A DNA stretch of 64,000 nt. It comes from Actinomycetota bacterium (GTDB lineage: Bacteria > Actinomycetota > Acidimicrobiia > Acidimicrobiales > JAMCPL01). The DNA is taken from NCBI GenBank assembly GCA_023379675.1, contig JAMCPL010000014.1:72185-136184 (forward strand). Direction: 5' to 3'. The translations under genes and the position numbers were made by a program. This document shows positions 5,853-39,246 of this stretch, one piece after another. The notes below the pieces were generated by a model that was not told the origin of the DNA, searched no databases, and was given only the letters and a program-made list of their open reading frames with translations. Within the stretch, counting starts at the first letter, position 1; every line of letters begins with the position of its first letter.

Positions 5853-5921
5853 AGTTTAATCAACCAACCGTTCAATCAAACTATATGTATGTATCATATA
5901 CCTGTCCGTTGCAAATTGCAA
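5853..5921 (-). promoter_or_regulatory. Promoter (-35 TTGCAA 5916-5921, 17-bp spacer, -10 TATGAT 5893-5898) plus conserved 24-nt box ATTGAACGGTTGGTTGATTAAACT (5853-5876)
   Basis: Copy A of a four-copy cassette (the others are at 9093-9152, 19312-19370 and 22720-22779). It is read in the orientation of the downstream minus-strand operon. Confidence 0.6.
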
Positions 5922-6040
5922 TAGCTCCGAGTATGTATTACCGGAAGTTTTTGGCAGGGTTTGTTTTCCCGTGGTATTGTTCACCTAGTATCGTAATAGC
6001 ACTCAGACGACGATCATTGAGTGATAGCATGGGCTAAGTA

Positions 6041-6148
6041 TATCGTAACAGTACTGTAATATCGTAACAGTATTGTAAGATTGCTTGTATGTATACAAGC
6101 CGGTGCCCTGATATATACTCAGGAATCATACGTATACGTATACGTAAT
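6041..6148. repeat. Cluster of candidate operator repeats upstream of the aryl-CoA ligase gene
   Basis: A tandem 19-mer is present: tatcgtaacagtactgtaa (6041-6059) and tatcgtaacagtattgtaa (6060-6078), containing the ACAGTACTGT palindrome. An 8-2-8 inverted repeat gcttgtatGTatacaagc lies at 6083-6100. A (TACGTA)n palindromic run lies at 6128-6148. Confidence 0.5.
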
Positions 6149-6176
6149 ACACCAGTGGCAAGCATGAGGAGGCGCC

Positions 6177-7760
6177 ATGGCAGAGCCGTTCAATGCAAGC
6201 AGTTACTTAGTCGACACCAATGTCGAGAGGGGGCAGGGGGACGACACCGCCCTATACTGCAGGGGTGCGAAGCTCAGCTATGCAGAGCTGCTTGCCAATA
6301 TCTCCGATGCCGCCAGGGGTCTCAAGGAGCTGGGCGTAAGGCCTGAGGAGAGAGTGCTCCTGGTCATGGCCGACGAGCCGGAGTTCCTCGCCGCCTTCTT
6401 GGGTGCTATGCGGATAGGCGCCATACCCGTGCCGGTGAATACCATGCTCACCGCTGAAGAGCTCATTCACATAGCCAGAGACTCCCGGGCTCGTTGGGCC
6501 ATAGCCAGCGCTTCCTTTGCCCCAGAAGCCATCAAGATGGCATCTGGGTCCTCCGAAGTGGAGGCCATCCTGCTCACCGGTCATGTAGACATTCTTGCCC
6601 TGGCCGGCCGGGAATCGGCATCCCCGGCCCGTGCCGGCCTGCACATCCACCAGTGGAACAGCTTCATGGACGGCACGGGGGATTTCTTCCCTCCCCATGC
6701 CACCTGGGACGAGTCTCCAGGGTTCTGGCTGTACACCTCCGGCACCACCGGCAGGCCATATGCCGCCATGCACCGTCATATCGACCTCAAGGTAACCGTG
6801 GACACCTACATGCGCACAGTTCTTGCCATCTCCTCCTACGACCGATGCTTCTCCGTGGCAAAGCTCTTTTTCGCTTACGGTCTGGGCAATTCGATGACCT
6901 TCCCTCTGGCCGGCGGCGCATCCACCGTGCTCGACCCGGCAGCACCCACTCCCGCCTCGACGGCTGCTATCGTGTCTGAGTACAGACCAAGCCTCTTCTT
7001 CGGAGTACCTACCTTCTATGCAGCCTTGCTCGCATCGGATATCGCCCAGGACACATTCAGATCCGTGCGGTTCGGAGTGTCGGCAGGCGAGCCACTGCCT
7101 GCGAGCATCTTCCACCGCTTCCGCGATCGGTTCGGCGTGGAGATACTGGACGGCATAGGCTCGACTGAAGCTCTGCACATCTTCATATCCAACAAACCAG
7201 GTGACATACGGCCAGGCACCACCGGAACGGCGGTGGACGGTTACGAGTTGCGCCTGCTGGATGACGGGGGTAGCCCGTGTAAGCCCGGCGAACCGGGCAA
7301 CCTCGAGCTCAGAGGTGACTCCATAGCGACCGGCTACTGGTGCAATGCCGCCAGTAGCCGGTACAGCTTCAAAGGTGAGTGGCTGCACACCGGAGACATG
7401 TATTCCTGCTCCGACGATGGCTACTATACATACCTCTCTCGCTCGAACGACATGATCAAGGCCGGAGGCATTTGGGTTTCCCCGTCCGAAGTGGAGGCGA
7501 CCTTGATCGAACATCCTGACGTACTGGAGGTAGGGGTGGTCGGCTTCCCTGATGAAGAGGGCTTGGACAAGCCGGTAGCCTGCATAGTGCCCATGCCCGG
7601 GCACTCGATCTCAGAAGAAGAGATCATAGCTTTTGCTCGGCAGAAGTTGGCGCCATTCAAAAGACCTCGACGGATAATTGTCCTGGACACCCTTCCGAAG
7701 ACAGCTACCGGCAAGATACAGCGGTACAAACTGCGTCAAGCCCTCGCTGCCGGAGAATGA
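6177..7760 (+). CDS. aromatic acid-CoA ligase (benzoate / 4-hydroxybenzoate-CoA ligase family)
   Basis: GAGGAGG SD at 6166-6172. AMP-binding motifs are WLYTSGTTGRPYAAMHRH, GEWLHTGDMY and KTATGKIQRYKLR. Confidence 0.85.
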   Translation: MAEPFNASSYLVDTNVERGQGDDTALYCRGAKLSYAELLANISDAARGLKELGVRPEERVLLVMADEPEFLAAFLGAMRIGAIPVPVNTMLTAEELIHIARDSRARWAIASASFAPEAIKMASGSSEVEAILLTGHVDILALAGRESASPARAGLHIHQWNSFMDGTGDFFPPHATWDESPGFWLYTSGTTGRPYAAMHRHIDLKVTVDTYMRTVLAISSYDRCFSVAKLFFAYGLGNSMTFPLAGGASTVLDPAAPTPASTAAIVSEYRPSLFFGVPTFYAALLASDIAQDTFRSVRFGVSAGEPLPASIFHRFRDRFGVEILDGIGSTEALHIFISNKPGDIRPGTTGTAVDGYELRLLDDGGSPCKPGEPGNLELRGDSIATGYWCNAASSRYSFKGEWLHTGDMYSCSDDGYYTYLSRSNDMIKAGGIWVSPSEVEATLIEHPDVLEVGVVGFPDEEGLDKPVACIVPMPGHSISEEEIIAFARQKLAPFKRPRRIIVLDTLPKTATGKIQRYKLRQALAAGE

Positions 7761-8680: not shown

Positions 8681-9018
8681 CCATTTCTCCGTGCTCTCTT
8701 TGCGCAGCCAAGAAGTCTCATCACTATCCAGTGGCACTACACGATTTCACCGGCCCTTCCCGACGGAACCAGTCTCGGGCCGGTCGCTTAAACCCAGGTC
8801 CACCCCATAGTACCAGCCACTGGCCATGCAAGGCCCGCGGCAACAAGTGGCGGGCATGCTATGGCCGGGGCCGGCCGGGGCCATACCGGTCATGATCCCG
8901 CCGTCGCCATAACATGCCGGCTTCTAAACCATGTGTTCAGGCACCGGCAGGCCTAGAAGGCAAGCACGGATAAATGTGGTAGCCCACCCCGTTTGATTCA
9001 ACGAATCACCAACCCTGA

Positions 9019-9081
9019 CCAAAATTACCGGTAATCAGATCTGCCAAGTCTGTCAAAATTACCGGTAATCAGATCTGCCAA
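9019..9081. repeat. Two tandem copies (34-bp period) of caaaATTACCGGTAATCAGATCTGccaa; candidate transcription-factor sites
   Basis: 9019-9047 and 9053-9081 are identical except for the first base. Each contains the perfect palindromes ATTACCGGTAAT and CAGATCTG. They lie immediately upstream of the -35 at 9093. Confidence 0.6.
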
Positions 9082-9092
9082 CCCTGGAACGG

Positions 9093-9152
9093 TTGCAACC
9101 TGTGACGAAATGATATACAGTGGTTTTTATTGAACGGTTAGTAGATTAAACT
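9093..9152 (+). promoter_or_regulatory. Promoter (-35 TTGCAA 9093-9098, 17 bp, -10 TACAGT 9116-9121) plus conserved box ATTGAACGGTTAGTAGATTAAACT (9129-9152)
   Basis: Copy B of the four-copy cassette. The box starts 7 nt after the -10. GGAGG at 9158-9162 and ATG at 9171 follow directly. Confidence 0.6.
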
Positions 9153-9170
9153 TGTTTGGAGGTAATTGTA

Positions 9171-10220
9171 ATGGGAGAGATCCGCCTGCCTGAAGTCGAA
9201 TTCACCGAAATCACTTATTCCAGGGATGGGTGGGTGGCAAGGGTGACCATCAACCGCCCGGAAGCATACAATGCCTACAGTACTCGTACGCTGATTGAAC
9301 TCGCTGCCGCTTTCCGGCAGGCTGCATTCGACGACGAGGTGGCTGTGATCGTATACACAGGTAGCGGCACCAACGCCTTCTGCACGGGCGGCGATGTCAA
9401 GGAGTACGAGAGCGTCTATACCAAGTCTCCTCATGACTACTGGAAGTACATGGGTCTTTTCAGCGCCTACATAGAGAGTATCGTAAAGACAGGCAAGCCG
9501 GTGATCGCTCGGCTGAACGGCATAGTTGTAGGTGGCGGCAACGAGAGCCACCTGGCCTGTGACCTGTCCGTGATTGCCGAACACGCCTACGTAGGTCAGG
9601 TCGGTACAGGCGTGGGAAGTGTGGCGGCAGGTGGAGCCACCCAGTGGCTCCCTATCGTAGTCGGCGATCGCCGTGCACGATGGATGCTCATGCTCAACCG
9701 GCGCATCCCTGCTTACCAGGCACTGGAGTGGGGCCTCGTCAACGAAGTGGTCCCTTCCGTGCGCCGCGACGGAGAGTTCATCGAGCGCGCGACACCCGAG
9801 CAGATCAAGCTGGCGCAGAAGGGACAGGATGGATACAGCATCGACCTCTCCAAGCTTGATGAGACTGTGGACGGCCTGTGCGAAGAGCTCATAGACAAGT
9901 TTGCCGAGTGCACCAGGTATACCAAGCAGCAGGCCAACTTCTGGAAGGATCTGTCCTGGTACCAGACTGTCGGCCATGCAGGCGAGTGGCTTGCTCTTCA
10001 TTATGCATCCTGGGAACCGCTGGAAGGCATGAGCGCCTTTGTGGAGAAGCGGCCGCCCCGGTACAGGATGCTGAGAGAACAGGCGGCTTTCGGGGGATCC
10101 TCGGAGTTCCCGTGGGGTCCCTACATGAATCATTGTCCCTCTTGCGGAGCCAGCAACCTTCCACGCAACTTCGAGTACTGCGGTCAGTGTGGCCATGCCC
10201 TTCAACCTCGAGAAAGCTGA
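9171..10220 (+). CDS. MenB-subfamily crotonase (candidate ring-opening hydrolase of the Oah/BamA or BadI type) with a C-terminal zinc-ribbon
   Basis: It contains RPEAYNAY...AFCTGGDV...GIVVGGGNESHLACDL...GQVGTGVGSVAAGG, which is MenB-like. An insertion follows VNEVVP. The C-terminus reads HCPSCGASNLPRNFEYCGQCGH. Confidence 0.65.
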   Translation: MGEIRLPEVEFTEITYSRDGWVARVTINRPEAYNAYSTRTLIELAAAFRQAAFDDEVAVIVYTGSGTNAFCTGGDVKEYESVYTKSPHDYWKYMGLFSAYIESIVKTGKPVIARLNGIVVGGGNESHLACDLSVIAEHAYVGQVGTGVGSVAAGGATQWLPIVVGDRRARWMLMLNRRIPAYQALEWGLVNEVVPSVRRDGEFIERATPEQIKLAQKGQDGYSIDLSKLDETVDGLCEELIDKFAECTRYTKQQANFWKDLSWYQTVGHAGEWLALHYASWEPLEGMSAFVEKRPPRYRMLREQAAFGGSSEFPWGPYMNHCPSCGASNLPRNFEYCGQCGHALQPRES

Positions 10221-10238
10221 TCGGGCCGGCAGCAACTG

Positions 10239-11141
10239 ATGGGAGCTTCCAAGGTGGTATCCATCTCTGATGCCGTCTCGAGCATAGTCGAAGACGGCTC
10301 TTTTGTGGTAGTCGGTGGCATGCACTTGCACAACAACCCGATGGCTCTGGTAAGGGAGATCATCCGCCAAGGTCGAAGGACAGGTAAGTTGCTGACCAGC
10401 CCCTGCGGTGCCATGAACGCAGACTTGCTGCTCGGAGCGGGGCTGGTCGACGAGCTGATCACCTCCTACGTCGGCTTCGAGCATCTCGGCTTGGCGCCCA
10501 ATTTCAGGCGCCTTGCCGAGCAGGGAAGTATCCGCATCCTCGAGTGCGACGAACCTTACATAGCCCATGGTCTCTATGCAGGAGCCGGCGGTCTGCCTTT
10601 CATCCCCTTGCCCAGGGGACTCGAGTACTCGGACATCCCCAAGGTGAACCCCGAAAGCTATACCTATACTGAGGATCCTTTCAGCGGTGAGCGCGTGCTT
10701 GTAGGGGCTCCCCTCTTGCCGGAGGTCGCTCTCCTGCATGCCCAGCTCTCGGATGCACAGGGGAATGCTGTCCTGCTGGGAGCTCACTTCCTGGACAGGC
10801 TGATAGCATTGGCGTCAAAGCATGTGATCCTCCAGGTGGAGCGTATCGTATCCACCGAGGAGATCAGCAGCCATCCGATGGGCACGACAATCCCTGCTTT
10901 CCTCGTTGACGCGGTGGTCGTAGCCACCGGAGGCTGCCACCCCACCTCCTCTCACGCTTTCTACACATACGACGAACAACATCTGCGCCAGTATCTCGAG
11001 ATGGCAAGAGATGAGCGTGGTACCGATGAGTACTTGACTCGTTATGTACGCCAGACTACAGAGGCACTGTACCAGCAGTCTATGGCCGATCGTATCGATA
11101 GCCTGCGCAATGAGGCCGTCCTGGAGCAAAGGGCACTATGA
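10239..11141 (+). CDS. CoA-transferase subunit A (glutaconate/3-oxoacid CoA-transferase family)
   Basis: It contains VVVGGMHLHNNPMALVREI and is followed by subunit B through an ATGA overlap. Confidence 0.75.
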   Translation: MGASKVVSISDAVSSIVEDGSFVVVGGMHLHNNPMALVREIIRQGRRTGKLLTSPCGAMNADLLLGAGLVDELITSYVGFEHLGLAPNFRRLAEQGSIRILECDEPYIAHGLYAGAGGLPFIPLPRGLEYSDIPKVNPESYTYTEDPFSGERVLVGAPLLPEVALLHAQLSDAQGNAVLLGAHFLDRLIALASKHVILQVERIVSTEEISSHPMGTTIPAFLVDAVVVATGGCHPTSSHAFYTYDEQHLRQYLEMARDERGTDEYLTRYVRQTTEALYQQSMADRIDSLRNEAVLEQRAL

Positions 11142-11917
11142 GCCTGGATCAACCAACGGATTGGAGTGCTTCAGAGCTGATGGCCACCGTGCTGGCCGGC
11201 CAGTTGCGTGACGGCGAAGTTGCCATAATGGGTACGGGCAGCGCTGTTCCGCAGGCTTCCTGCAGGCTGGCACAGCTGACACATGCTCCCAATTTCTCCT
11301 ACATAGCAGGCGGTACTTGCAGCGTCAATCCATACCAGCAGCCACTGGTCGCATCGTCTTGCGACTACCGGCTACTACGGGCAGAGACGGCGGTACCGCT
11401 TACCGATGTAGTCCTAATGGAGGGTCGCGGCGACGTGTTCGACATCTTCTTTGCCGGTGGCATCCAGATCGATGCCTACGGCAACTGCAATCTGGTGGCG
11501 GTAGGAAGCTGGAACCATCCTCACCCTCGGGGACCAGGCAGCGTAGGGCTTCCTTTCCTTTCCAGGGTGGGGAGAATACTCATTTACACCATGTCGCACA
11601 ACCGGCGCACCTTCGTCGAGAAGGTCGACTTCCGGAGCGGCCCTGGTTTCTTGGAGGGACCGGCGTCCTGGCGAGAAGCTGGACTCATGGGAGGGGGACC
11701 AGCCATGGTGGTCACCCCTCTGTGTACCATGACCTTCAACCCGGAAACCTTGCGGATGCAGATTGCCTCGCTCCACCCAGGCGTAGAACTCCAACAGGTG
11801 GTGGAAGCCACCGGTTTTGAGATCGAGATCGAACCACCCCTACCGTTCACACCCTCACCCTCTCCCGAACAGCTTGACATACTACGGGCAATGGATCCGA
11901 ATGGACTGCTCCGTTGA
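11138..11917 (+). CDS. CoA-transferase subunit B
   Basis: It contains AIMGTGSAVPQASCRLAQLTHAPN and has an ATGA overlap with subunit A. Confidence 0.75.
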   Translation: MSLDQPTDWSASELMATVLAGQLRDGEVAIMGTGSAVPQASCRLAQLTHAPNFSYIAGGTCSVNPYQQPLVASSCDYRLLRAETAVPLTDVVLMEGRGDVFDIFFAGGIQIDAYGNCNLVAVGSWNHPHPRGPGSVGLPFLSRVGRILIYTMSHNRRTFVEKVDFRSGPGFLEGPASWREAGLMGGGPAMVVTPLCTMTFNPETLRMQIASLHPGVELQQVVEATGFEIEIEPPLPFTPSPSPEQLDILRAMDPNGLLR

Positions 11918-12032
11918 CCGTATATCCGGCCGGCTCCTTTCTCCGCAAAGAAGCATCCCCATGCTGCAATACATGTCGGCATCCATCTGGCCATGACTCG
12001 CAATATAAGAATATATGGAGGTAGAAAGACTT

Positions 12033-12785
12033 ATGCGCTTCGAAGGCAAGACAGCTATCGTCACTGGTGGTGGCAGTGGCATCGGCAGGGCAGTTGCGCT
12101 GTTGCTCGCAGGCGAGGGTGCTGCCGTAGCAGTGGCGGATCTCGACGGAACCAGAGCATCTCAGGTGGCCGGCGAGATCGCATCCACTCCAGGTGAAGGA
12201 ATAGGCGTAGCCTGTGACGTCACATCCACCTCTGATGTCCGATCCATGATAATAAAGGTCTTGGATGCGTTCGGGCACCTGGACATCCTTGTTTCCAACG
12301 CAGGCTGGGACAAGGTCATGCCATTCGTTGACACCGACGAGGAACTCTGGGACAAGGTCATTGCGGTCAACTACCGCGGCCATCTCGCATGCGTGCATGC
12401 GGTTCTGCCTCACATGATCGAGCAAGAGCACGGCCGCATCGTGCTGGTGGCTTCAGACGCAGGAAGGGTCGGTTCCAGCGGGGAAACCGTCTATTCCGGG
12501 GCCAAAGGCGCCACGATCGCATTCTCCAAAGCCATTGCCAGAGAGGTGGCTCGCCACAGCATCAATGTGAACTGCGTGGCGCCGGGGCTCATCGACACTG
12601 CCATGCTTGCGGGAGTACGCGAGGGTAACGAACGGCTGATGGATGCGATCACGCGCTCGATCCCGTTTCGCCGGGTAGGTAAGCCGGAGGAAGTAGCCAG
12701 GGCCATCTGCTTCATGGCCTCTTCTGATGCCGATTACATCACTGGACAGACACTGAGCGTAGACGGTGGACTCACCATGTCCTGA
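12033..12785 (+). CDS. short-chain dehydrogenase/reductase (FabG/BadH-like)
   Basis: It contains MRFEGKTAIVTGGGSGIGRA and the catalytic motif YSGAKGA. The ATG at 12033 was preferred over 12015 because GGAGG lies at 12017-12021. Confidence 0.75.
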   Translation: MRFEGKTAIVTGGGSGIGRAVALLLAGEGAAVAVADLDGTRASQVAGEIASTPGEGIGVACDVTSTSDVRSMIIKVLDAFGHLDILVSNAGWDKVMPFVDTDEELWDKVIAVNYRGHLACVHAVLPHMIEQEHGRIVLVASDAGRVGSSGETVYSGAKGATIAFSKAIAREVARHSINVNCVAPGLIDTAMLAGVREGNERLMDAITRSIPFRRVGKPEEVARAICFMASSDADYITGQTLSVDGGLTMS

Positions 12786-12922
12786 GAAGCTGGCGTCGCG
12801 GTTCCAGGTCATGGCCGGCCACCGGCATCCGTAGCGTGCATGTTGTCCACGGGCAAATCGCCGGTGACTCGCTCTCCTGCTGCTTTCCCAGCCACCCCAG
12901 ATAAGAGGCTCAGCGGAGCCCG

Positions 12923-14098
12923 TCAATCCCACCAGATGTCGCCGTCCAGTAGACCTTTGGCAATCAAACCCAGTTGTACCTGGGTAGTTCCTTCTACGAT
13001 GGTAAGTTGCTTGGCATCCCTGTACCACAGCTCTGTGGGGTGATCTTTCATGTAACCGGCGGCGCCGAGCAACTGTAAAGCCACCCCTGAGGCATGGACA
13101 GCAAGCTCGGTTGCGTAGTATTTGGACATAGAGAGCAGGGGCACCCATTCCTTGGTGAACTTACCCTGATCGGCAAGGGCGGCTGCACGGTAAGTAAGCA
13201 GTCTGGCTGCTTCTATCTCGGTAGCCAACCTGGCCAGTTCCCACTGGATCCCCTGGAAGTCAGCTATGGTCCTGCCGAAGGCCTCGCGCTCTTTCACATA
13301 GTTGGTGGCGTACATGAGCGCTCCTTCCGCCAAGCCAATCCCCCGAGCAGCCACGACCGGCCTCATGGAGTTGAGGCCCAGCATAGCCAGCCTGAATCCT
13401 CCCACCTCTCCTATGACGCACTCTGGAGGAACGCTGACGTCCTTCAGAACCAGCTCACCGGTATCCACACCTCTGACGCCCATCTTTTCGTCAAGACGAC
13501 CCACGGATACACCTTTCCACCCACGTTCGACGATAAAAGCGGTGATCGAGTCGTGAGCACGGCTGGCCGGAGCCTCTGTCTTGGCAAAGACGGTAAACCA
13601 GTCAGCCTGAGCGACTCCTGACATCCAGCATTTCAAGCCGTTCAGTATCCAGGCGCCCTCATGACTGGGATCTCTCACGGCCCTGGTTCTCATACCCATA
13701 ACATCACTGCCCGCTTGCGGCTCGGATAGTCCAAATGCGGCGCGTTGAGTACCCTCGGCAATTCCCGGCAGATAGCGCTTCCTCTGATCCTCGGAACCGG
13801 CTATCATCACAGGTCCTGTCGGGAGACGGGTGAGCAACAGCATAAGCGCTGCCGTGCTCGAGTACTTAGCCACCTCCTCCACCGCCAAGACAAGGCCAAG
13901 TATCCCAGCTCCTGATCCGCCGTACTCCTCAGGTATGCACAGTCCCAGCAAACCCGCCTTGGCGAATGTCTCGAAGAGATCAGCTGGGTACTCGCCGGTG
14001 GTGTCGATCTCACGGGCTCTGGGCTGCACCTTATCTCTTGCAATTCTACGAACCGTATCTTGCAGCTCAGCCAGCTCAGATGAAAGCTCAAAATCCAT
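12923..14098 (-). CDS. acyl-CoA dehydrogenase
   Basis: It contains MDFELSSELAEL..., GLSEPQAGSD and YRDAKQLTIVEGTTQVQ. The start was trimmed to ATG 14098, with AAAGGGG upstream. Confidence 0.8.
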   Translation of the reverse strand: MDFELSSELAELQDTVRRIARDKVQPRAREIDTTGEYPADLFETFAKAGLLGLCIPEEYGGSGAGILGLVLAVEEVAKYSSTAALMLLLTRLPTGPVMIAGSEDQRKRYLPGIAEGTQRAAFGLSEPQAGSDVMGMRTRAVRDPSHEGAWILNGLKCWMSGVAQADWFTVFAKTEAPASRAHDSITAFIVERGWKGVSVGRLDEKMGVRGVDTGELVLKDVSVPPECVIGEVGGFRLAMLGLNSMRPVVAARGIGLAEGALMYATNYVKEREAFGRTIADFQGIQWELARLATEIEAARLLTYRAAALADQGKFTKEWVPLLSMSKYYATELAVHASGVALQLLGAAGYMKDHPTELWYRDAKQLTIVEGTTQVQLGLIAKGLLDGDIWWD

Positions 14099-14163
14099 AC
14101 CTACCCCTTTCTTGGTTCTGGCCCTCTTGCAGCCTTCGCTCCGGCCAATATCCTCCTCCCATC

Positions 14164-14865
14164 TCAACCTGCCATTATCATGTCCACGCAGGCATCGGCG
14201 AATGCCTGAGGATCATCACGGTCGGGGTCGAACCACTTGTATATCCAACTGGTCATGCCAAGGATGGCTTGGGCGCCGTAACGAGCCCTCATGGGCGCCA
14301 GTACTCCATTGTCCACGGCAGTAGCAACTGCTTCTTGATATACACGCAGGTACTGCTTCTCCTTGGCCAGTATCTCACTGTCATAGTTTCGAGCCAGCCT
14401 CGGTCGCTGGTCGAAGAAGACGGTGAAAAAGCTGGGTTCCGAAGCGACCATGACCACCTGATGACGTATCAGCGCCGCTAAGCGCTCTCTGGGATCCTGG
14501 ATGGACAGGCACTTCTCGATGCTATCCAGCGCTGAGGTGATGGTCTTGTCGAATATCAGGTAAAGCAGTTCGGCCTTGGAGCGCACATAGTAGTACAGGC
14601 TCGCTTTCCTCAAGTTCAACTCCGAGGCCACATCGTCCAACGACCCGGCATCATAGCCTCTCTCCCTGAACACCTTTGCAGCCACCTCTACGATCTCCGC
14701 CAAACGGGCCGTATATTCCGCGCTGGGCCCACGGTTCCGCGGCCTTCCCGGACGCCGTGCACCCACCTGCGCTCCGGCAGCACCGATCATCGCCCCCATG
14801 CCTCTCCTGACACTTGGATCAAGACTTGTGGCACTATCCTCAAGATCCTCAAGGCTGTCTTTCAT
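14164..14865 (-). CDS. TetR-family transcriptional regulator
   Basis: The HTH region is AAKVFRERGYDAGSLDDVASELNLRKASLYYYVRSKAEL. It lies co-directionally between the bcr-like genes and the acyl-CoA dehydrogenase. Confidence 0.8.
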   Translation of the reverse strand: MKDSLEDLEDSATSLDPSVRRGMGAMIGAAGAQVGARRPGRPRNRGPSAEYTARLAEIVEVAAKVFRERGYDAGSLDDVASELNLRKASLYYYVRSKAELLYLIFDKTITSALDSIEKCLSIQDPRERLAALIRHQVVMVASEPSFFTVFFDQRPRLARNYDSEILAKEKQYLRVYQEAVATAVDNGVLAPMRARYGAQAILGMTSWIYKWFDPDRDDPQAFADACVDMIMAG

Positions 14866-14973
14866 GCGCTATATGATCATCCCATGCATGGGCGGCGTGG
14901 ATCTTGTCCAACCAAGTATCCTCTCGCTGATCGGCACCCATACCCTGCAACTTCTCCCGTTCATCAGCTCAAT

Positions 14974-15786
14974 CTATACCAGCGCATCTTCCTTGGCAAG
15001 CTTTCTGGCTCGTTGCCGACCAAGAACTGCGGCTCCAAGAGCAAGGACAAACTGGGGCATGTCTCCTGATGGCAGGTTCATCTCCGCCTTCAGCTTTTCC
15101 TTGAGCACCTGCGCCATGCTCTCGAAACGCAGTATCCCACCGACCAGAGTGAACTCGGGCTCCATCTGCACTCTTTTCATCAGCTGGACCGACTTGGAGA
15201 CCAGAGAGACGATTGCGCCATGCATGATGTCGGCAGGAGCCACCCCTTGGGAAAGATGGTTGATGACTTCCGCCTCGGCAAAGACGGCACACACTCCAGA
15301 GATGGGCACATCCTCCTTCGATGTCGCTGCTGCCGGCCCGATCTCCTCGGTCTCGAAACCCATGTAACGGGCCGTCTTCTCCAGGAAGGCCCCAGTGCCA
15401 GCGGCACACTTGTCATTCAGGCGGAACGACTTCACCCTACCGTGCTCATCGAGCCGGGTGACCTTCATCGTCTGCCCACCCACATCCAGGATGGTGTGGG
15501 TGTCAGGATACAAGAATCGGGCCCCCCAGGCCGCTGCGGTAAGGTCAGTGATATTGATACTTCGCCCTCCCACTTGGAAGCGGCCATAGCCCGTTGCCGC
15601 CACGTAGGACAGGTCCCCCCGGTCCAGCCCAGCTTGAACGAGCGCCTTTCCCAGAGCCTCTTCTCCCACCTTGTCCAGCTTGAACCCGGTTCGGATCATG
15701 GCCTTGCCTGCAATCGAGTCGTCATCGGATAGGATAACCGCTTTGGTATAAGTCGAGCCTACGTCTATTCCCGCTACGTAGCTCAT
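14974..15786 (-). CDS. BcrAD_BadFG-family ATPase subunit (benzoyl-CoA reductase D/BzdP-like)
   Basis: It contains [12 protein letters not shown] and [13 protein letters not shown]. It is one of two distinct adjacent ATPase subunits. Confidence 0.75.
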
Positions 15787-16607
15787 GCCGTAACCTTCAT
15801 CAGCCTTGATGGAGCCTGACGGCTCTTCACATGATCCATGGCGAACAATGCTGCCCCCAGCGCTCCCATAAAGTGCGATTCCTCGCTCACGTATATCGGA
15901 AAACCCAGAAGCTCCTCCAGTGCCTTCACCATTCCTATATTCCTGGCCACCCCACCAGTGAATGCCACATCCTGCTCGATCCCTACTCGCCGTAGGAGAC
16001 CCAGGGCCCTCCCCGCCACTGACTGGTGGACCCCGAAGAGGATGTCCTCAACCTTCTTGCCCTTACCCAGCCAGGAAAGGATCTCTGACTCAGCAAAGAC
16101 TGTACAGGTGGTGGAGATCTTCACGGGCCTCTCCGAGCGAAGCGAGGTAGGACCAAGCTCATCGAGTGGTATCTCGAGCGCAGTCGAAGCCGCTCCCAGG
16201 AACCTCCCTGTACCAGCAGCACACTTGTCGTTCATGCTGAAGTCGAGGATCTCTCCATTGGGGTTCACCTTGATCGCCTTGGTGTCCTGACCGCCCATGT
16301 CCAGGACAGTCCTCGTGGCAGGGAACATGTGCACGGCTCCCCTGCCGTGGCAGGAAATTTCCGTAGTTTGGGTATCACCAAATGTCACCTTGTAGCGTCC
16401 GTACCCGGTACCCACGATGAAGCCAACGGCCTCCTTCTCCTCATGAATGTCGCCATCCCGAAGAGCCACCTCGTAAGCATGCTCGGCCGCTATGGTGACA
16501 TTGGCACCGGTATCTATCAGAGCTCGGCCCACTATTCGCTGGTCCTCGTCGATGATGATGGCTTTTGTTTGAGTGGACCCGACATCCACTCCTGCTGCAT
16601 ATGACAT
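15783..16607 (-). CDS. BcrAD_BadFG-family ATPase subunit (benzoyl-CoA reductase A/BzdQ-like)
   Basis: It contains [20 protein letters not shown] and [13 protein letters not shown]. It overlaps the downstream ATPase gene by 4 nt. Confidence 0.75.
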
Positions 16608-16616
16608 TTATACCTC

Positions 16617-17945
16617 CTAACTGGCTCGTGCCGCTATCAGCTTGCGAGTGGCCAGCCCTTCGAAAAAGGCATCCACCCGGTTTTTCAACTGCGCTTCCGA
16701 GACCACACGGGAGTCCATGTGATCAGACTCGAGTAGCAGCGTACCTACGTCGGCATCTTTCATGACTGCCAGCCTGTTGTCGGCCAAGCCCGTCGAAACC
16801 GTTCGGCAGGATTTGATGGAGTGATACACCACACCGTCGATCCCGTAGGGCTCCACCATGTCCACCAGCATTTTGTCCGAATAGAACATGGAATCCATTG
16901 CATTTCTCACTGTGACCAGCACCCCCTCGGCCAAGCTCTCCAAAGGATTGTCAAGGTCGTACTCGAACCCCGTGTTCATGCCACCCGAAGCAAACCATAG
17001 ATAGCTGGAGCCTACGAACTCCCCGCCCCACTTACTGAACATCTCTCCAAAACGCCGGAATATCGGGTAACAGGGTACTCCTACGAATACCAGGCGGTAC
17101 TTCTCCTCATGAAGAGTCCCGATTCCGTTGGCGGCTTTGTACTCGAGCTCTTCCACCAGATCCTCGAAGTACTTGGCTCCCTCTTCCCGGCCTCTGAACC
17201 CGTTGGCTACGCCAAGATACACTGTCCCGTCAGTTACCCCGTTGTAGAGAGCAGGTACAGCTTTGTTGACTTCGACCACTCGCTTGAAGCCAACGCTCAT
17301 CCTGTTGGCGTAACCCATGTGATCGCGTAGCTTGTCAATATCGAACTTCTTCCCGGTAACACCCTCCAAGACACCGATCAGCTCTTTCACCTGCCCTTCC
17401 ACATAGAGGCGATCATTGTCGAAATCGGCATCCCCTTTCCAGGTCCGCCTGCCTTCTGTCCTGGACCCGGGCACATCCAAGGTGAAGATAGGGACGTGGT
17501 ACATCCTCTCCCATATCTCCGCCCACTTTATGTAGGTATTGCAGGCATTGGTGTAGACAGCTACGGCGGGCGGAGGTATGCGCCCCATCGGGTGGTCTCC
17601 GCCGCGCATCTGCAATCCCACATCCGCTTTCACGTAGCCGCATACGTCGGATGCATACCCATAATCCTCTGCATCGGCTATGTAGGACTCCGAAGCATGC
17701 CTTACCGCTGTCTGCAGGCCATTGATCTCCGGAAATACCGTATGCAAATCGAACGATCGAAGCAACTCGGCCAAGCTTCCCATCACAAACACGTAGGCAG
17801 CCTTCTCGCCCCGCTCCGGAGCGGTGGTCAGCTCCTTATACCATTCACGGAACAGCTGGTTGCCGTCCCTGTTGCCCCGTCCTACCAATGTTTCAGCCCT
17901 GCCATCAGAACTGGGCGTTACTCTTGTAATTTGTTCGCTGCTCAT
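16617..17945 (-). CDS. benzoyl-CoA reductase / 2-hydroxyacyl-CoA dehydratase family subunit (BcrB/BadE/BzdO-like)
   Basis: It contains FPEINGLQTAV and SDVCGYVKADVG. The start was trimmed to ATG 17945, with GGAGG 5 nt upstream. Confidence 0.75.
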   Translation of the reverse strand: MSSEQITRVTPSSDGRAETLVGRGNRDGNQLFREWYKELTTAPERGEKAAYVFVMGSLAELLRSFDLHTVFPEINGLQTAVRHASESYIADAEDYGYASDVCGYVKADVGLQMRGGDHPMGRIPPPAVAVYTNACNTYIKWAEIWERMYHVPIFTLDVPGSRTEGRRTWKGDADFDNDRLYVEGQVKELIGVLEGVTGKKFDIDKLRDHMGYANRMSVGFKRVVEVNKAVPALYNGVTDGTVYLGVANGFRGREEGAKYFEDLVEELEYKAANGIGTLHEEKYRLVFVGVPCYPIFRRFGEMFSKWGGEFVGSSYLWFASGGMNTGFEYDLDNPLESLAEGVLVTVRNAMDSMFYSDKMLVDMVEPYGIDGVVYHSIKSCRTVSTGLADNRLAVMKDADVGTLLLESDHMDSRVVSEAQLKNRVDAFFEGLATRKLIAARAS

Positions 17946-17975
17946 TGCAACCTCCATTTACCAATCTCTCTCCGC

Positions 17976-19142
17976 TCACACGAAGAGAATATTCTCTATG
18001 AATGTCTCCAGCTGGATCTGCAGGCTGTCGAAGCTGGTCATCGATTCTTCGAACTCGCTCACGAAGTACGGCACGCCCTCTTCGTCAAGGGCCTTTATAT
18101 ACGCCACCTGCTCGTCCAGCCCGGGCTCACACATCTTGGCCGCGGTGATGATTGCCGCACTCGCGCCGGAGTCCTTGATCCGGTCCAAGAGCATCTTTTC
18201 CTTCGGCTTTCGCAAATCATGCTGGACAGCGCTGTAGCTGGAGTGTTCCAGATAGGCATCGGCCAGGTTGCCGAGTGGGTCCCCCTCGGTCGAGACATCC
18301 TCAGTGATCCAGCGCGACCCAATCAAAAGATCATCATCCACTACATAAGAGAACTGGCCGATGGTGTGCAGCAGATCCAATGGCGGTTGTTCGCAGAAAC
18401 CTCCCTCCAGCACAAGGCGCATCCTGTCCTGAGGCTGGAGATTTCGCTTGCCCACGAGGTCCAGGGCATATCTCAGCAACTCGTTGTGCTCCTGCCTCGG
18501 CACCATACCGCCAACTGCCATCAGCACGTATGCCTCGTCCACCGCCAGCAGCCAAGGGGAGTCCCGCCTTATGGCATACATCTCTCTCAACAGCCGTCTG
18601 TTCTCGTTGAAAATGACGATTGCTGCGCGCAGATCGTCATCACTGATCCGATGACCTGCAACATCCTCGACATCCCTCTTCAGGCGATCATACTCGCCCC
18701 GCAGGTACGTGATCGCGTGAGCGGAGTTGGCATTCTGGGGCAGGTAAAGAATCTCGCACGGATAATCAAAGTTCCGTCCGTATACCGCAGCCAGGTTTCT
18801 TGCCGAGTCGCAGATGGGATGCGAAACAAACATGTCCAGCACGATCTTCCGGGTCAGGGCAAGTTCGAGGGAGGTCTTGACAATCGAGCAAAGATACCCA
18901 CCAAAGTGCGCCCCCGCCTCGCTTACCTCAAAGGATCCTCCCCTTACGGACAGAGGCAACATCCCTGCTGCCGCGACAATCTCATCTGGAAAATAGACCT
19001 GAAAACGCCCAACCACCTTGCCGCCGTTTTCACGCCAACGTTTCACCGTCGGATAGTCCACGTCTTCCACCAGATCACGGCAGTACTCGACAACACCTTC
19101 TATCGGCAGGTCCTGCCACCCTTCCAGCATGCGAACAACCAT
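17976..19142 (-). CDS. benzoyl-CoA reductase / 2-hydroxyacyl-CoA dehydratase family subunit (BcrC/BadD/BzdN-like)
   Basis: It contains GRFQVYFPDEIVAAAGMLPLSVRGG and HPICDSARNL. The start was trimmed to ATG 19142 (context gtGAGGttgctATG). The track start at 19298 lies in the leader. Confidence 0.7.
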   Translation of the reverse strand: MVVRMLEGWQDLPIEGVVEYCRDLVEDVDYPTVKRWRENGGKVVGRFQVYFPDEIVAAAGMLPLSVRGGSFEVSEAGAHFGGYLCSIVKTSLELALTRKIVLDMFVSHPICDSARNLAAVYGRNFDYPCEILYLPQNANSAHAITYLRGEYDRLKRDVEDVAGHRISDDDLRAAIVIFNENRRLLREMYAIRRDSPWLLAVDEAYVLMAVGGMVPRQEHNELLRYALDLVGKRNLQPQDRMRLVLEGGFCEQPPLDLLHTIGQFSYVVDDDLLIGSRWITEDVSTEGDPLGNLADAYLEHSSYSAVQHDLRKPKEKMLLDRIKDSGASAAIITAAKMCEPGLDEQVAYIKALDEEGVPYFVSEFEESMTSFDSLQIQLETFIENILFV

Positions 19143-19311
19143 AGCAACCTCACGCTCTTTTCCTTTATCTGGCTGGAGTTCTCCAAGCCAAGTCCTCCAC
19201 CTCATGCACGCCGACCACTGCTCGAGGATGTCGCCTGGACATCCGGTCCCTGGAGTCCCTGGCGCGGAGTCCCTGACACCATGTCGTACAATCACCACAC
19301 GTTTCCAGTGG

Positions 19312-19370
19312 AGTTCAATCTACCAACTGTTCAATAAAACTATTGTACGCCACTCGACTGCAAATTGCAA
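19312..19370 (-). promoter_or_regulatory. Promoter (-35 TTGCAA 19365-19370, 17 bp, -10 TACAAT 19342-19347) plus conserved box ATTGAACAGTTGGTAGATTGAACT (19312-19335)
   Basis: Copy C of the four-copy cassette. The box starts 6 nt after the -10. A leader of about 170 nt precedes the ATG at 19142. Confidence 0.6.
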
Positions 19371-19517
19371 CTGTTCTGATGTGCTTCATCAAACAATTTT
19401 GAAAGATATTGGTTCTACGTTATATCACGTGGACTTATAGATAAAAAGCTTGCCCGCGAGGCTTTCAGTATCGCACTCGCCTGAACTGCTGGTACCTGCG
19501 ATACGCTATACTCAAGG

Positions 19518-19555
19518 TTGAATTGCGGATTGCCGCATTTGGAATTTCAATTCAA
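19518..19555. promoter_or_regulatory. Nested inverted repeats upstream of boxC (candidate operator)
   Basis: TTGAATT (19518-19524) pairs with AATTCAA (19549-19555). Inside lie GCGGattgCCGC (19525-19536) and GAATTtcAATTC (19542-19553). The site is 40 nt upstream of the GTG at 19595. Confidence 0.4.
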
Positions 19556-19594
19556 GCAACGATTTTTCTGATCGACTGAACGAGGAGAACGGCA

Positions 19595-21259
19595 GTGATC
19601 ACTCGGCACATAGACTTCGACACCGATCCCGGGGCCTACCGGCACTGGAAGCTCATTATCGAGCCACCGATAGCCACCGTCGTCATGGCAGTCGATCCGG
19701 CAGGGGGGTTGCATGACGGCTACGAGCTGAAACTCAATTCCTACGATCTCGCAGTCGACATCGAGTTCTACGACCTGACACAACGACTTCGTTTCGAACA
19801 TCCCGAGGTGAAGGCCGTCGTGATGACCAGCGGCCTCGATAAGGTCTTCTGCGCGGGAGCCAATATCCAGATGCTCGCTGGTTCTTCCCACCACCACAAG
19901 GTCAATTTCTGCAAGTTCACCAACGAGACACGTAACGGGGTCGAAGATGCCACGCGGTATTCCGGGCAGGTCTGGATCGCTGCAGTCAATGGCGCCGCAG
20001 CAGGTGGCGGCTACGAGCTTGCGCTCGCTTGCGATGAGATCATCCTGATTGATGATCGTGTCTCAGCGGTCTCGTTTCCGGAGGTACCACTCCTCGGCGT
20101 ACTCCCGGGCACTGGTGGACTCACCCGAGTCGTCGAGAAGCGTCATGTGCGGCGAGACCGCGCCGATGTCCTGGCAACCAAGGCCGAAGGCATAAAGGGC
20201 CACCAGGCAGTCGAGTGGGGGCTCGTCGACGAAATCGCACTGCACAGCCGTTTCGATGAGGCCGTGCGGCAACGGGCATTGGCACGCGCCGAGCAATCGG
20301 ACCGGCCTGCAGAAGAGCATGGCATCATCCTCTCCTCTATAGAGCGCAGAGAAGATACCGGCACGCTCAGCTATCCCCATCTCGAGATCCGCCTAGAACA
20401 TCATATCGGTGCAGCCTTCTTCAAGATCAAGGCTCCAACCCCCGCTCAAACCCTTTCATCATTGGACGAGATGCTTTCAGCAGGTGCAGCGTTCTGGCCC
20501 CTAGCGCTGTGCAGGGAACTCGATGACGCGGTGCTCCGCCTGCGCTTCAACGAGCCGGAACTCGGCACCTGGGTCTTTGAAACCGAGGGTCAGGCTTCAA
20601 ACGTACTGGCAGTCGGCGAGCTACTGCGCGAGCACGCCGGCCACTGGCTCGCCAGGGAAATCCGCCTGTATTGGGCGCGGACACTCCGCCGCATCGAGCT
20701 TTCGGCGCGCACGCTCGTTACTCTCATCAAGCCCGGAAGCTGCTTTGCGGGCATCCTTGCCGAGCTGGTACTGGTCGCGGATCGCTCCCTGATGCTTGAG
20801 GGCGTTGTGGGCCATTCCACGCTGCCCGCGGCATCCATCCTGCTGGACGAGATGAACGATGGCTGGTTCGTGATGACCAACGGGTTGAGCCGGCTCGAGT
20901 GCCGCTATCTCGGGCAACCGGATGACCTGCAAGCCGTGCGGGACCGGCTCGGCAAGGAGTTGCCGGCAGCAGATGCCGCCGAGCTGGGGTTGGTTACTTT
21001 CACCCCTGACGAAATCGACTTTGATGAGGAGGTACGGGTGATGCTGGAAGAGCGGAACAGCTTCTCGCCCGATGCGGTAACCGGCATGGAGGCGAACCTC
21101 CGCTTTGCTGGGCCGGAGACGATGGAAACGAAAATCTTCGCACGTCTCACCGCCTGGCAGAACTGGATATTCCAACGCCCTAATGCGTCAGGGCCCGAAG
21201 GTGCACTACGCAGCTACGGCACCGGGTCTCGTCCCAATTACGACCGGGAGCGAGTGTAA
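19595..21259 (+). CDS. boxC: benzoyl-CoA-dihydrodiol lyase (2,3-epoxybenzoyl-CoA dihydrolase)
   Basis: 554 aa double-crotonase architecture. The N-terminus is IDFDTDPGAYRHWKLIIEPPIATVVM. GTG start with a GAGGAG SD. Confidence 0.85.
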   Translation: MITRHIDFDTDPGAYRHWKLIIEPPIATVVMAVDPAGGLHDGYELKLNSYDLAVDIEFYDLTQRLRFEHPEVKAVVMTSGLDKVFCAGANIQMLAGSSHHHKVNFCKFTNETRNGVEDATRYSGQVWIAAVNGAAAGGGYELALACDEIILIDDRVSAVSFPEVPLLGVLPGTGGLTRVVEKRHVRRDRADVLATKAEGIKGHQAVEWGLVDEIALHSRFDEAVRQRALARAEQSDRPAEEHGIILSSIERREDTGTLSYPHLEIRLEHHIGAAFFKIKAPTPAQTLSSLDEMLSAGAAFWPLALCRELDDAVLRLRFNEPELGTWVFETEGQASNVLAVGELLREHAGHWLAREIRLYWARTLRRIELSARTLVTLIKPGSCFAGILAELVLVADRSLMLEGVVGHSTLPAASILLDEMNDGWFVMTNGLSRLECRYLGQPDDLQAVRDRLGKELPAADAAELGLVTFTPDEIDFDEEVRVMLEERNSFSPDAVTGMEANLRFAGPETMETKIFARLTAWQNWIFQRPNASGPEGALRSYGTGSRPNYDRERV

Positions 21260-21264
21260 TCGTC

Positions 21265-22677
21265 GTGGCGACCGCGGACTACAACACGCTGATCCCCAAT
21301 AATGTCGATCTGTCGAGCGACCGCCGGTTGCAGCGAGCACTGGAATCCTGGCAGCCTCGCTTTATTGAGTGGTGGAAGATGCTGGGACCAGTAGCATTCC
21401 AAGATCACGATGTCTACTTGCGAACGGCCATCTCTGTCGCCCAAGATGGATGGGCCAACTTCGGTTACGTCAAGATGCCGGAATATCGATGGGGCATCTT
21501 CTTGGCTGATGCGGTCCCTGGGCGGAAGATCGCTTTTGGCGATCACATGGGCATGGATGCCTGGCAAGAGGTTCCGGGTGAGTATAGGGCCGACCTCCGC
21601 CGGTTGATCGTTGTGCAAGGGGACACCGAGCCAGCCTCAGTCGAGCAACAACGGAGGCTATGCCTGACAGCACCGAGCGTATACGACCTGAGAAACCTGT
21701 TCCAGGTGAACGTGGAGGAGGGACGTCACCTGTGGGCTATGGTGTATCTCCTGCACCGGTATTTCGGCCGGGATGGTCGTGAGGAGGCGGACGACCTGCT
21801 GCAGCGCCACTCCGGCGATCAGGACAATCCGCGCATCTTGGGCGCGTTCAACCAAGCGACGCCTGACTGGCTGTCGTTCTACTTCTTCACCTACTTCACC
21901 GACCGGGACGGCAAGTTCCAACTCGCGTCCCTCAAGGAGAGCGCTTTCGACCCGCTTTCACGGACCTGCGAGTTCATGTTGAAAGAAGAAGCACATCACA
22001 TGTTCGTCGGTGCAAGCGGGGTGGCACGGGTGCTGCAACGCACCGTCGACCTCATGAAAGAGCACGACACCAGTGACGTTGCACAATTCGGTGGAATCGA
22101 CCTCGCGACTATTCAAAGATACCTCAACTTCCACTTCAGCGTTTCCCTCGATCTCTTCGGAGCCGAAACCTCCACCAATGCCGCCAATTACTTCGCGGCA
22201 GGACTCAAGGGTCGCTTCCACGAAGAGCAACGCGACGATGATCACCAGATGAAGGGCGAGAGGCGAATGGTACCCGCATTCGAAAGTGCGGCCATCACCG
22301 AGCACGAGCATGCATCACTCACGGCACTCAACGAGATGCTCCGCGAGGACTATATCGCCGACTGTGCAAAGGGCGTGGAGCGCTGGAATAGGATCCTGGC
22401 CGGAGTAGGCGCTGAACTCCGCCTGCCCCACATCGGCTTCAACCGCCATGTCGGTGTCTTCGCGGGACAACCCATCACACCCGATGGGAACGTGATAAGC
22501 GAAGGAGGCTGGAAGTCGGGGATGGCCTCTGAGTGGATCCCGATTGACTCGGACAAGGAACACGTGCAGGCGCTCATGTCTGGTATCCGTGAACCAGGAA
22601 AGATGGCAGGCTGGATCGCACCACCCGCCACCGGCATCCACGCAAAGCCCATCGAATTCGAGTACGTCCGTACATAG
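21265..22677 (+). CDS. boxB: benzoyl-CoA 2,3-epoxidase (oxygenase) subunit B
   Basis: 470 aa. It contains IPNNVDLSSDRRLQRALESWQP and the di-iron type motif MLKEEAHHMFVG. GTG start 5 nt after boxC. Confidence 0.85.
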   Translation: MATADYNTLIPNNVDLSSDRRLQRALESWQPRFIEWWKMLGPVAFQDHDVYLRTAISVAQDGWANFGYVKMPEYRWGIFLADAVPGRKIAFGDHMGMDAWQEVPGEYRADLRRLIVVQGDTEPASVEQQRRLCLTAPSVYDLRNLFQVNVEEGRHLWAMVYLLHRYFGRDGREEADDLLQRHSGDQDNPRILGAFNQATPDWLSFYFFTYFTDRDGKFQLASLKESAFDPLSRTCEFMLKEEAHHMFVGASGVARVLQRTVDLMKEHDTSDVAQFGGIDLATIQRYLNFHFSVSLDLFGAETSTNAANYFAAGLKGRFHEEQRDDDHQMKGERRMVPAFESAAITEHEHASLTALNEMLREDYIADCAKGVERWNRILAGVGAELRLPHIGFNRHVGVFAGQPITPDGNVISEGGWKSGMASEWIPIDSDKEHVQALMSGIREPGKMAGWIAPPATGIHAKPIEFEYVRT

Positions 22678-22719
22678 CGCCCCCCTTCAGTAATATCAGC
22701 AATATATGCATGCCGTCTG

Positions 22720-22779
22720 TTGCAATTTACGATGAAGTGGTATATAATATGTTCAATTGAACGGTTGGTAGATTGAACT
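22720..22779 (+). promoter_or_regulatory. Promoter (-35 TTGCAA 22720-22725, 17 bp, -10 TATAAT 22743-22748) plus conserved box ATTGAACGGTTGGTAGATTGAACT (22756-22779)
   Basis: Copy D and the best-consensus copy. The box starts 7 nt after the -10. A leader of about 105 nt contains the hairpin GCGCCTGGttagCCAGGCGT (22791-22810). Confidence 0.65.
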
Positions 22780-23173: not shown

Positions 23174-23176
23174 TCT

Positions 23177-25469: not shown

Positions 25470-25472
25470 GCG

Positions 25473-39239: not shown

Positions 39240-39246
39240 GACATAT

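Follow-up and report, generated by a model that had tools for sequence, protein, structure and literature searches.

Among the characterised regulators, MbdR comes closest in function, and AibR closest in sequence and operator type, to the putative TetR regulator considered here, which is encoded in a 64-kb stretch of contig JAMCPL010000014.1 from an uncultured actinobacterium (the whole of this stretch is referred to below as the window), together with four copies of a short promoter-box module. MbdR, from Azoarcus/Aromatoleum sp. CIB, is a TetR repressor found in a bcr-type cluster, where it acts on four promoters and is released by 3-methylbenzoyl-coenzyme A (3-methylbenzoyl-CoA), and its operators, which carry the palindrome ATAC-N10-GTAT, span the -10/+1 region (PMC4424350). 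The operator of AibR, ACCTACCG-N2-CGGTAGGT, was defined by mutagenesis in electrophoretic mobility shift assays and by a crystal structure. The bases that matter most are A5, G8, T10, and G12, Lys47 and Tyr51 contact G12, G13, and T14, the mutation of G12 abolished binding, and the protein binds DNA only when it is ligand-bound (PMC5389471). No described regulator of the actinobacterial bcr-like clusters was found in the literature searched. The reading favoured here, which the comparison of sequences makes reasonably probable, is that the box of the module in the window is the operator of the linked TetR, through which all four promoters would be repressed in response to an aryl-CoA, and that the module has been spread by duplication.

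Each copy of the module is approximately 70 bp long, and consists of a sigma-70-type promoter (-35 TTGCAA, a 17-bp spacer, and -10 TAnnnT) followed by a conserved 24-bp box (Table 1). These elements are not distributed at random. The pattern TTGCAA-N17-TANNNT is found at exactly four sites in the 64 kb, each directly 5' of a box (expected 0.18), and ATTGAAC-N9-ATTRAAC, with up to two mismatches allowed, is also found four times, in every case with 0 mismatches (expected 0.33), while 0/100 shuffles reached four matches to either pattern. The four copies had been reported in a first-pass annotation of this DNA, the coordinates, strands, and box sequences of which were all reproduced, and the order of the -35, spacer, -10, and box given there was recovered at all four sites and nowhere else in the window. 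The distance between the -10 and the box is also as described there, that is, 7 nt in copies B and D, 6 nt in copy C, and 16 nt in copy A, in which approximately 10 nt are inserted in comparison with copy C. A consensus promoter scanner independently finds copies A, C, and D, and indicates an alternative promoter for copy A, CGGACA-17-TATAGT at 5880-5908, which is nearer the box. The same annotation had placed the -35 within a TGCA-N3-TGCA repeat in copies A, C, and D, which is correct for A and C, the only copies with this repeat (TTGCAATTTGCA), but not for D, which reads TTGCAATTTACG; copy B reads TTGCAACCTGTG.

The comparison with a relative that is approximately 93% identical, based on three aligned intergenic regions, revealed no substitutions in the boxes (0/72) or the -35 hexamers (0/18), and a single one in the -10 hexamers (1/18), against 6/51 in the 17-bp spacers and 119/936 (~12.7%) in the other intergenic DNA. 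At this background of ~12.7%, the probability that 72 positions would remain unchanged, as estimated from the alignment counts, is ~6e-5. The contrast between 0/72 changes in the box and ~12% in its flanks and spacers implies a constraint well beyond that expected from recent copying, and the alignments indicate that the box is under purifying selection. A more distant Acidimicrobiales metagenome-assembled genome (MAG), L011, encodes a TetR of 85% identity, and its bcr promoter retains the TTGCAA, the 17-bp spacing, a TATGAT, and the box ATTGAACAGTTGGTAGATTAAACT, while the spacer has diverged. The non-randomness of the module and the selection on it support the proposal of the first-pass annotation that a shared promoter and box mark four co-regulated operons, with the transcription starts being predicted.

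The dispersal of the box was assessed by searching for the strict 23-mer pattern in one genome per species, that is, 185,579 species-representative genomes (GTDB), a scan that diverged copies would escape. Matches were found in the homologous cluster of the Actinomycetes bacterium TL1-4.bin29 (three sites on one contig), together with two isolated matches in unrelated genomes, a back-of-envelope estimate of the number expected by chance being ~2. Copies B, C, and D are found on the TL1-4.bin29 contig, whose identity to the window is 90-98%, and two further MAGs (GCA_027387375.1 and GCA_023486005.1) have an identical TetR and all four copies of the box. Besides these MAGs, samples such as SRR10276728 and ERZ27237265 were a source of contigs. 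The box as a dispersed repeat, similar to a miniature inverted-repeat transposable element, a possibility raised by the first-pass annotation, is thus ruled out, given that the strict pattern is confined to the homologous cluster, bar the two isolated matches. A position weight matrix (PWM) of the window-type box returned no site with a score of at least 12 in the loci with a TetR of 70% identity or less, and the exact sequence of the box is, on the basis of these scans, lineage-specific.

The gene of the TetR protein lies within the boxed operon C, downstream of the bcr-like genes and co-directional with them, as had been annotated, so that the regulator is linked to its candidate targets. 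The protein is composed of a TetR_N domain (PF00440, E 9e-12) and a TetR_C_24 domain (PF17932, E 6.5e-21). In a Pfam scan of the open reading frames (ORFs) of the aromatic cluster, which left small ORFs outside its scope, this was the only regulator, and the window contains just one other, a LuxR/AAA/TPR (STAND) protein of 951 aa that is encoded far from the cluster (56586-59441). Orthologues with 63-85% identity adjoin bcr-like or hcr-like genes in 5/5 of the distinct longer contigs examined, which are derived from Actinomycetota MAGs; a shorter contig (L016) has the same linkage, and further loci of this type were also found. The helix-turn-helix region of these orthologues is almost invariant, which implies that similar DNA should be recognised. 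The best match among the solved homologues of the protein is 3dcf, with AibR (5k7f/5k7h/5k7z, E 2e-24) in second place, and 3vpr, KstR2, and FadR are also recovered, several of these proteins being sensors of CoA thioesters. In the alignment, the DNA-contacting Lys47 and Tyr51 of AibR correspond to Lys87 and Tyr91 of the TetR of the window.

A number of other features were observed in the protein and its surroundings. A basic, AT-hook-like arm, RRPGRPR (residues ~46-52), precedes the helix-turn-helix in nearly all of the orthologues, and the AT-rich edges of the box are a possible point of contact for it. Where the last bcr-like gene ends, just 5' of the TetR gene, there is a promoter-like sequence, TTGCCA-17-TAGATT (14971-14999, minus strand), and the TetR gene may also have its own, unboxed promoter. 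In many of the relatives (L012, L016, L017, L019, L022, L025, L026, and L028), the tetR gene forms a pair with a hemerythrin-domain gene that precedes it, and which is absent from this position in the lineage of the window, and a PaaX-like regulator is found near the locus in L014 and L019.

The published AibR consensus, which is independent of the window, was used to probe non-redundant loci totalling ~330 kb, and returned seven matches of at least 13/16, five of which are in the promoter regions of TetR-linked clusters (Table 1). An operator PWM was built solely from the sites of the relatives that were detected with this consensus, while the bcr-type sites located through the consensus of the window were excluded as circular. 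Among the 127,966 positions of the window, this operator PWM ranks the boxes at 3 (copy D, the best match of the four), 9 (C), 31 (B), and 40 (A), each in register with the start of the box. The box can be read in an 8-2-8 frame, ATTGAACG-GT-TGGTAGAT, which occupies the first 18 bp and is followed by a 6-nt tail; A5, G8, and T10 are kept in 4/4 boxes and G12 in 3/4, with an A replacing the G at position 12 in the core of copy B. The description of the box as an ATTGAAC-N9-ATTRAAC direct repeat, as proposed in the first-pass annotation, is exact in all four copies, but the direct repeat is probably secondary to the 8-2-8 operator frame. The bcr promoters of the relatives L012, L014, L019, and L021 have their best match to the box at the same place, just past the -10, and the site in L021, GTCGACCG-AC-CGGTGGGT-AGAACTCC, aligns without gaps to copy C, ATTGAACA-GT-TGGTAGAT-TGAACTCC. 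The box would thus represent an AT-shifted, lineage-specific version of the operator family that travels with this TetR. The role of box repressor, which had been suggested for the linked TetR at the outset, can be assigned to it as putative, and the protein is the best candidate for that role by virtue of the synteny, the AibR-type sites adjoining its orthologues, and the PWM ranks.

Two other motifs were tried and set aside. A shared "GGTAG" core (regex GTAGGT[CA]/GGTAGA[TA]) was dropped, because common -10 hexamers (TAGAAT, for example) also fitted it, and a second 8-2-8 site beginning at the second ATTGAAC, aligned by eye, was rejected, as its right halves are unlike CGGTAGGT.

The copies of the module are related by duplication, which the first-pass annotation had missed. 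Copy A can be aligned to both copy C and the bcr promoter of L011 well beyond the box, through a leader of ~190 nt and a ribosome-binding site, into the first ~30 bcr-like codons, with the N-terminus reading MVVGIREGWRVLPMKG... in A versus MVVRMLEGWQDLPIEG... in the first bcr-like gene behind C. The leader of copy A contains a 57-codon ORF, the first ~30 codons of which (MVVGIREGWRVLP...) represent a truncated paralogue of this bcr-like gene, and the stop of which overlaps the start of the LeuA-like (HMGL) gene, at 5561, by 8 nt. Copies B, C, and D share ~60-70 nt in a repeat search, and their 17-bp spacers are ~10/17 (~59%) identical, as counted by eye. Copy C is the orthologue of the bcr promoters of the relatives, and L011 has a single box, with its ferredoxin, LeuCD-like, and hcr-like genes following the acyl-CoA dehydrogenase on the same strand, across a 129-nt gap that lacks a box. 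On the simplest reading of these alignments, copies of the bcr promoter-operator module came to lie in front of the other operons during the rearrangement of the cluster. The 57-codon ORF may be translationally coupled to the LeuA-like gene, and gene callers place ORFs of 55-88 aa at its position in related MAGs.

In the mechanism proposed here, each of the four promoters would be read by the housekeeping sigma factor, with the transcript beginning at approximately the first position of the box. The TetR would bind a degenerate AibR-type operator in the first 18 bp of the box, and would then block either the binding of the RNA polymerase or its escape from the promoter at all four sites, that is, it would repress rather than activate. 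As its gene forms part of operon C, the protein would also repress its own transcript, and would be negatively autoregulated. The affinity of the TetR for DNA would change in the presence of one of the CoA thioesters of the pathway, which is probably an aryl-CoA such as benzoyl-CoA or 4-hydroxybenzoyl-CoA. The module would have spread in the lineage through the duplication of an ancestral bcr promoter region.

Several points weigh against this mechanism. Only 9-10/16 positions of the boxes of the window agree with the AibR consensus, the right half (TGGTAGAT) being good and the left half (ATTGAACG) poor, and position 12 is an A in copy B. One 18-bp dimer site does not account for the conserved tail at the 3' end (TGAACT/TAAACT), to which the direct repeat is due. 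The predicted starts follow from the promoter consensus alone, and the box of copy A lies 16 nt past its -10. The Lys/Tyr contacts recur in both of the other TetR-family structures aligned, and carry little weight for specificity. Such base contacts occur in many other TetR proteins. As AibR needs its ligand to bind DNA, the direction of the ligand control cannot be assumed. The asymmetric operator and its direct-repeat tail could reflect an unusual mode of TetR binding, with either two dimers or the RRPGRPR arm in the AT-rich minor groove, or a ligand-dependent co-repression of the AibR type.

The weak consensus match also speaks for a rival reading, in which the box is the operator of a regulator encoded elsewhere, which might read the ATTGAAC-N9-ATTRAAC direct repeat, for example, while the linked TetR controls something else. 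The heptamer repeat is conserved not only in the four copies but also in L011, TetR sites do not typically contain a direct repeat of 16 bp, and only 64 kb of the genome are in view. This arrangement is nevertheless improbable, given that the PWM derived from the sites of the TetR orthologues places the four boxes in the top 40 positions, in register, that the TetR-bcr synteny is conserved, that the relatives have a weak direct repeat, or none, at the orthologous sites, and that the scanned ORFs of the aromatic cluster include no other regulator, the only other one in the window being the distant LuxR/STAND protein. We give a similarly low probability to the box being no more than a copied initial transcribed region, kept for promoter strength, escape, or the stability of the 5' end of the mRNA, with no dedicated repressor. 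The homology of the copies by descent, the leader and ~30 codons shared by A and C, and the similarity of the spacers of B, C, and D would all fit this explanation, as would the extended -10-like TGGTAGATT contained in the box of copies C and D. This second -10 is not conserved, however, as copy A reads TTGATT in place of TAGATT, and simple copying accounts neither for the lack of change in the box, in comparison with ~12% in its flanks and spacers, nor for its match to the operator-like sites beside the TetR orthologues.

If the predicted starts are correct, all four mRNAs begin with the box, which might act as RNA, that is, as an element of the 5' leader that folds into a regulatory structure, or to which an RNA-binding protein or a small RNA binds. 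The long leaders of operons A, C, and D (~130-315 nt) would accommodate such an element, and copy D can form a stable hairpin (z = -2.26). When five leaders were folded singly, however, the z values ranged from +1.5 to -2.3, with structures that differ between the copies, the alignment fold reached -2.86 kcal/mol with 0 compensatory pairs, and the leader of operon B has only 43 nt. No Rfam family was found at the gathering threshold in the whole window, and a role of the box as RNA appears very improbable. The least credible of the alternatives, to the point of being almost negligible, is a regulator of the BzdR/BoxR type, acting on the TGCA repeats of the promoter. BzdR and BoxR are repressors of the benzoyl-CoA pathways of Azoarcus that are released by benzoyl-CoA, and this analogy, which was drawn in the first-pass annotation from the TGCA repeats of their operators, is not supported by the present data. 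While TGCA-N3-TGCA does overlap the -35 in A and C, these two copies are mutual duplicates, and hence count as one observation, neither B nor D has the repeat, nor does the orthologous bcr promoter in L011, and no such regulator is encoded among the Pfam-scanned ORFs of the window, a scan that was limited to the larger ORFs of these 64 kb.

The genes that lie behind the boxes, in operons for the breakdown of aromatic acids, are listed in Table 1. The predicted leaders of the four operons are those discussed above, the one preceding operon B being the only short one. The four boxed operons were named a "benzoyl-CoA regulon" in the first-pass annotation. The grouping of these operons stands, but the label is too specific, as their bcr-like and hcr-like genes fall below the benzoyl-CoA cut-offs. 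The best NCBIfam matches of the bcr-like and hcr-like subunits are to benzoyl-CoA reductase and 4-hydroxybenzoyl-CoA reductase, yet under the curated cut-offs, which are passed by boxB, boxC, and the benzoate-CoA ligase, that is, by genes without a box. Because the benzoyl-CoA cut-offs are passed only by the unboxed genes, "aryl-CoA reductive regulon" is the safer name.

Table 1. Coordinates of the promoter-box modules, the operons, and the putative regulator in the window, and of the AibR-type sites found in the TetR-linked clusters of relatives.
Feature	Position	Strand	Content
Copy A module	5853-5921	-	-35 TTGCAA 5916-5921; -10 TATGAT 5893-5898; box 5853-5876; 18-bp operator core 5859-5876; ATTGAAC-N9-ATTRAAC match 5854-5876
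Copy B module	9093-9152	+	-35 TTGCAA 9093-9098; -10 TACAGT 9116-9121; box 9129-9152; core 9129-9146; ATTGAAC-N9-ATTRAAC match 9129-9151
Copy C module	19312-19370	-	-35 19365-19370; -10 TACAAT 19342-19347; box 19312-19335; core 19318-19335; ATTGAAC-N9-ATTRAAC match 19313-19335
Copy D module	22720-22779	+	-35 22720-22725; -10 TATAAT 22743-22748; box 22756-22779; core 22756-22773; ATTGAAC-N9-ATTRAAC match 22756-22778
Candidate repressor	14164-14865	-	TetR_N + TetR_C_24; RRPGRPR N-terminal arm
Copy A leader	5554-5852	-	duplicate of the bcr leader; holds the 57-codon ORF, 5727 to 5554
Operon C leader	19143-19311	-	~190 nt, 5' of the bcr-like genes
Operon A	618-5561	-	LeuA/HMGL-like 4233-5561; 2-oxoacid:ferredoxin oxidoreductase-like 2227-4236 and 1211-2350; ORF without assigned function 618-1139
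Operon B	9172-12785	+	enoyl-CoA hydratase with C-terminal DUF7577; CoA-transferase subunits A and B; short-chain dehydrogenase
Operon C	12923-19142	-	four bcr-like genes (17976-19142, 16617-17957, 15783-16607, 14974-15786); TetR 14164-14865; acyl-CoA dehydrogenase 12923-14098
Operon D	22887-28767	+	ferredoxin; LeuC-like and LeuD-like aconitase-family subunits; 4-hydroxybenzoyl-CoA-reductase-like (hcr-like) gamma, alpha, and beta
AibR-type site, 14/16	L012:9456		between ferredoxin/hcr-like genes and hemerythrin-tetR
AibR-type site, 14/16	L017:8257		5' of ferredoxin/hcr-like genes
AibR-type site, 14/16	L022:6296		5' of ferredoxin/hcr-like genes
AibR-type site, 14/16	L021:1247		5' of tetR
AibR-type site, 13/16	L026:4564		5' of hydratase/CoA-transferase genes

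The genes at 1-32169 form an unusual mixture for a single cluster, in an uncultured genome of the Actinomycetota/Acidimicrobiales type, and do not point to an obvious pathway. The LeuA-like, LeuCD-like, and 2-oxoacid:ferredoxin oxidoreductase-like genes adjoin bcr-like and hcr-like genes, boxB/boxC, and the benzoate-CoA ligase, and the same stretch includes a lactate/malate dehydrogenase-like gene (28815-29969), a prephenate dehydratase (29849-31000), and a prephenate dehydrogenase (30997-32169). The box defines a functional grouping within this mixture, in which the LeuA-like, LeuCD-like, and 2-oxoacid oxidoreductase-like genes are placed with the bcr-like and hcr-like genes, and apart from the aerobic boxBC and ligase genes. 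The other parts of the window (38320-46734 and 49462-59441) contain genes of a Tad-type pilus (TadE, two T2SSF, and T2SSE), very large surface-type proteins with LysM, PKD/TIG, and fn3 domains, and the STAND regulator, all of them unrelated to the regulon.

The promoters of boxC and the ligase lack the box and carry different repeats, as the first-pass annotation had indicated. The box pattern is present only at its four sites, while the unboxed promoters (5985-6075 and 19468-19510) share the motif TATCG(T/C)A, a difference that suggests that the ligase and the aerobic box genes are controlled separately. Two copies of ATATCGTAACAGTA, with GTATCGTAATAG nearby, are found 5' of the benzoate-CoA ligase gene, and an inverted repeat, AGTATCGCA...TGCGATACG, is found 5' of boxC.

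A further motif occurs near two of the boxed promoters. A 34-bp tandem repeat, CAAAATTACCGGTAATCAGATCTGCCAA, present in two copies (9020-9086, plus strand) 5' of the -35 of copy B, holds the palindrome TTACCGGTAA, and a related sequence, AAACTTCCGGTAAT, is found 5' of copy A (5937-5950, minus strand). Six matches to motifs of the TTACCGGTAA type were found, compared with 0.41 expected, and both sites are in divergent intergenic regions (B/amidohydrolase and A/CoA ligase); in the ~93% identical relative, both of the copies at B read TTACCGGCAAT. The TTACCGGTAA palindromes were considered as alternative TetR sites and rejected, as the spacing of their half-sites is 4 bp shorter than that of the AibR type, and neither C nor D contains them. 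This motif may be the site of a second regulator.

The system provides a testable model of how aryl-CoA metabolism may be regulated in uncultured Actinomycetota, with a regulator, four operators, and a regulon, and a clean example of the growth of a regulon through the duplication of a promoter-operator module. A TetR repressor that is released by a CoA thioester is a well-known mechanism, and this would be a familiar switch in a new lineage, with a modest conceptual gain. A more far-reaching joint reading, in which the module is a copy-and-paste cassette that wires new sets of enzymes into an aryl-CoA reductase regulon, combined with an unusual mode of TetR binding or co-repression, is rather unlikely. 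If the cassette part of this reading were true, the enzyme sets recruited would be the LeuA-like and 2-oxoacid oxidoreductase-like genes, the LeuCD-like genes, joined to the hcr-like operon, and the hydratase, CoA-transferase, and short-chain dehydrogenase genes, which would be the sign of an aromatic pathway not yet described. In that case, copy A would have been caught in the act, a bcr-like fragment having moved with the promoter to become an upstream ORF that overlaps the start of the LeuA-like gene.

The putative repressor of the window can be set beside the known systems at different levels of similarity. BzdR and BoxR belong to another protein family, which was not found among the ORFs of the window that were scanned. 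KstR2, the Bacillus FadR, and the Thermus protein 3vpr are among the solved homologues of the TetR, and regulate CoA-thioester pathways through the occupancy of operators at promoters. They have other operators and other ligands, and none of them is known to control bcr-like or hcr-like genes.

AibR, from Myxococcus xanthus (5K7F/5K7H/5K7Z), is the second-best solved homologue and also binds a CoA thioester, the orthologues of the window TetR adjoin sites that match its operator at 13-14/16, and the box fits its 8-2-8 frame. In contrast, AibR controls isovaleryl-CoA biosynthesis, and the boxes of the window, at 9-10/16, have a degenerate left half and an additional conserved 6-nt tail. The low protein identity (E 2e-24 over ~180 residues) indicates a related subfamily, rather than an orthologue. 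MbdR differs in its host, which is betaproteobacterial rather than an uncultured actinobacterium, and in its operator, ATAC-N10-GTAT versus ATTGAACG-GT-TGGTAGAT, the MbdR palindrome being present in none of the four modules. In the window, furthermore, it is the whole promoter that is shared and spread by duplication, rather than the operator alone. The two systems have in common a TetR encoded inside a cluster of the class I (ATP-dependent) aryl-CoA reductase type, and four promoters that share one operator, which is putative in the window. The operator spans the -10/+1 region in the case of MbdR, as it is predicted to do here, and an aryl-CoA thioester of the pathway is the established effector of MbdR and the proposed one of the TetR of the window.

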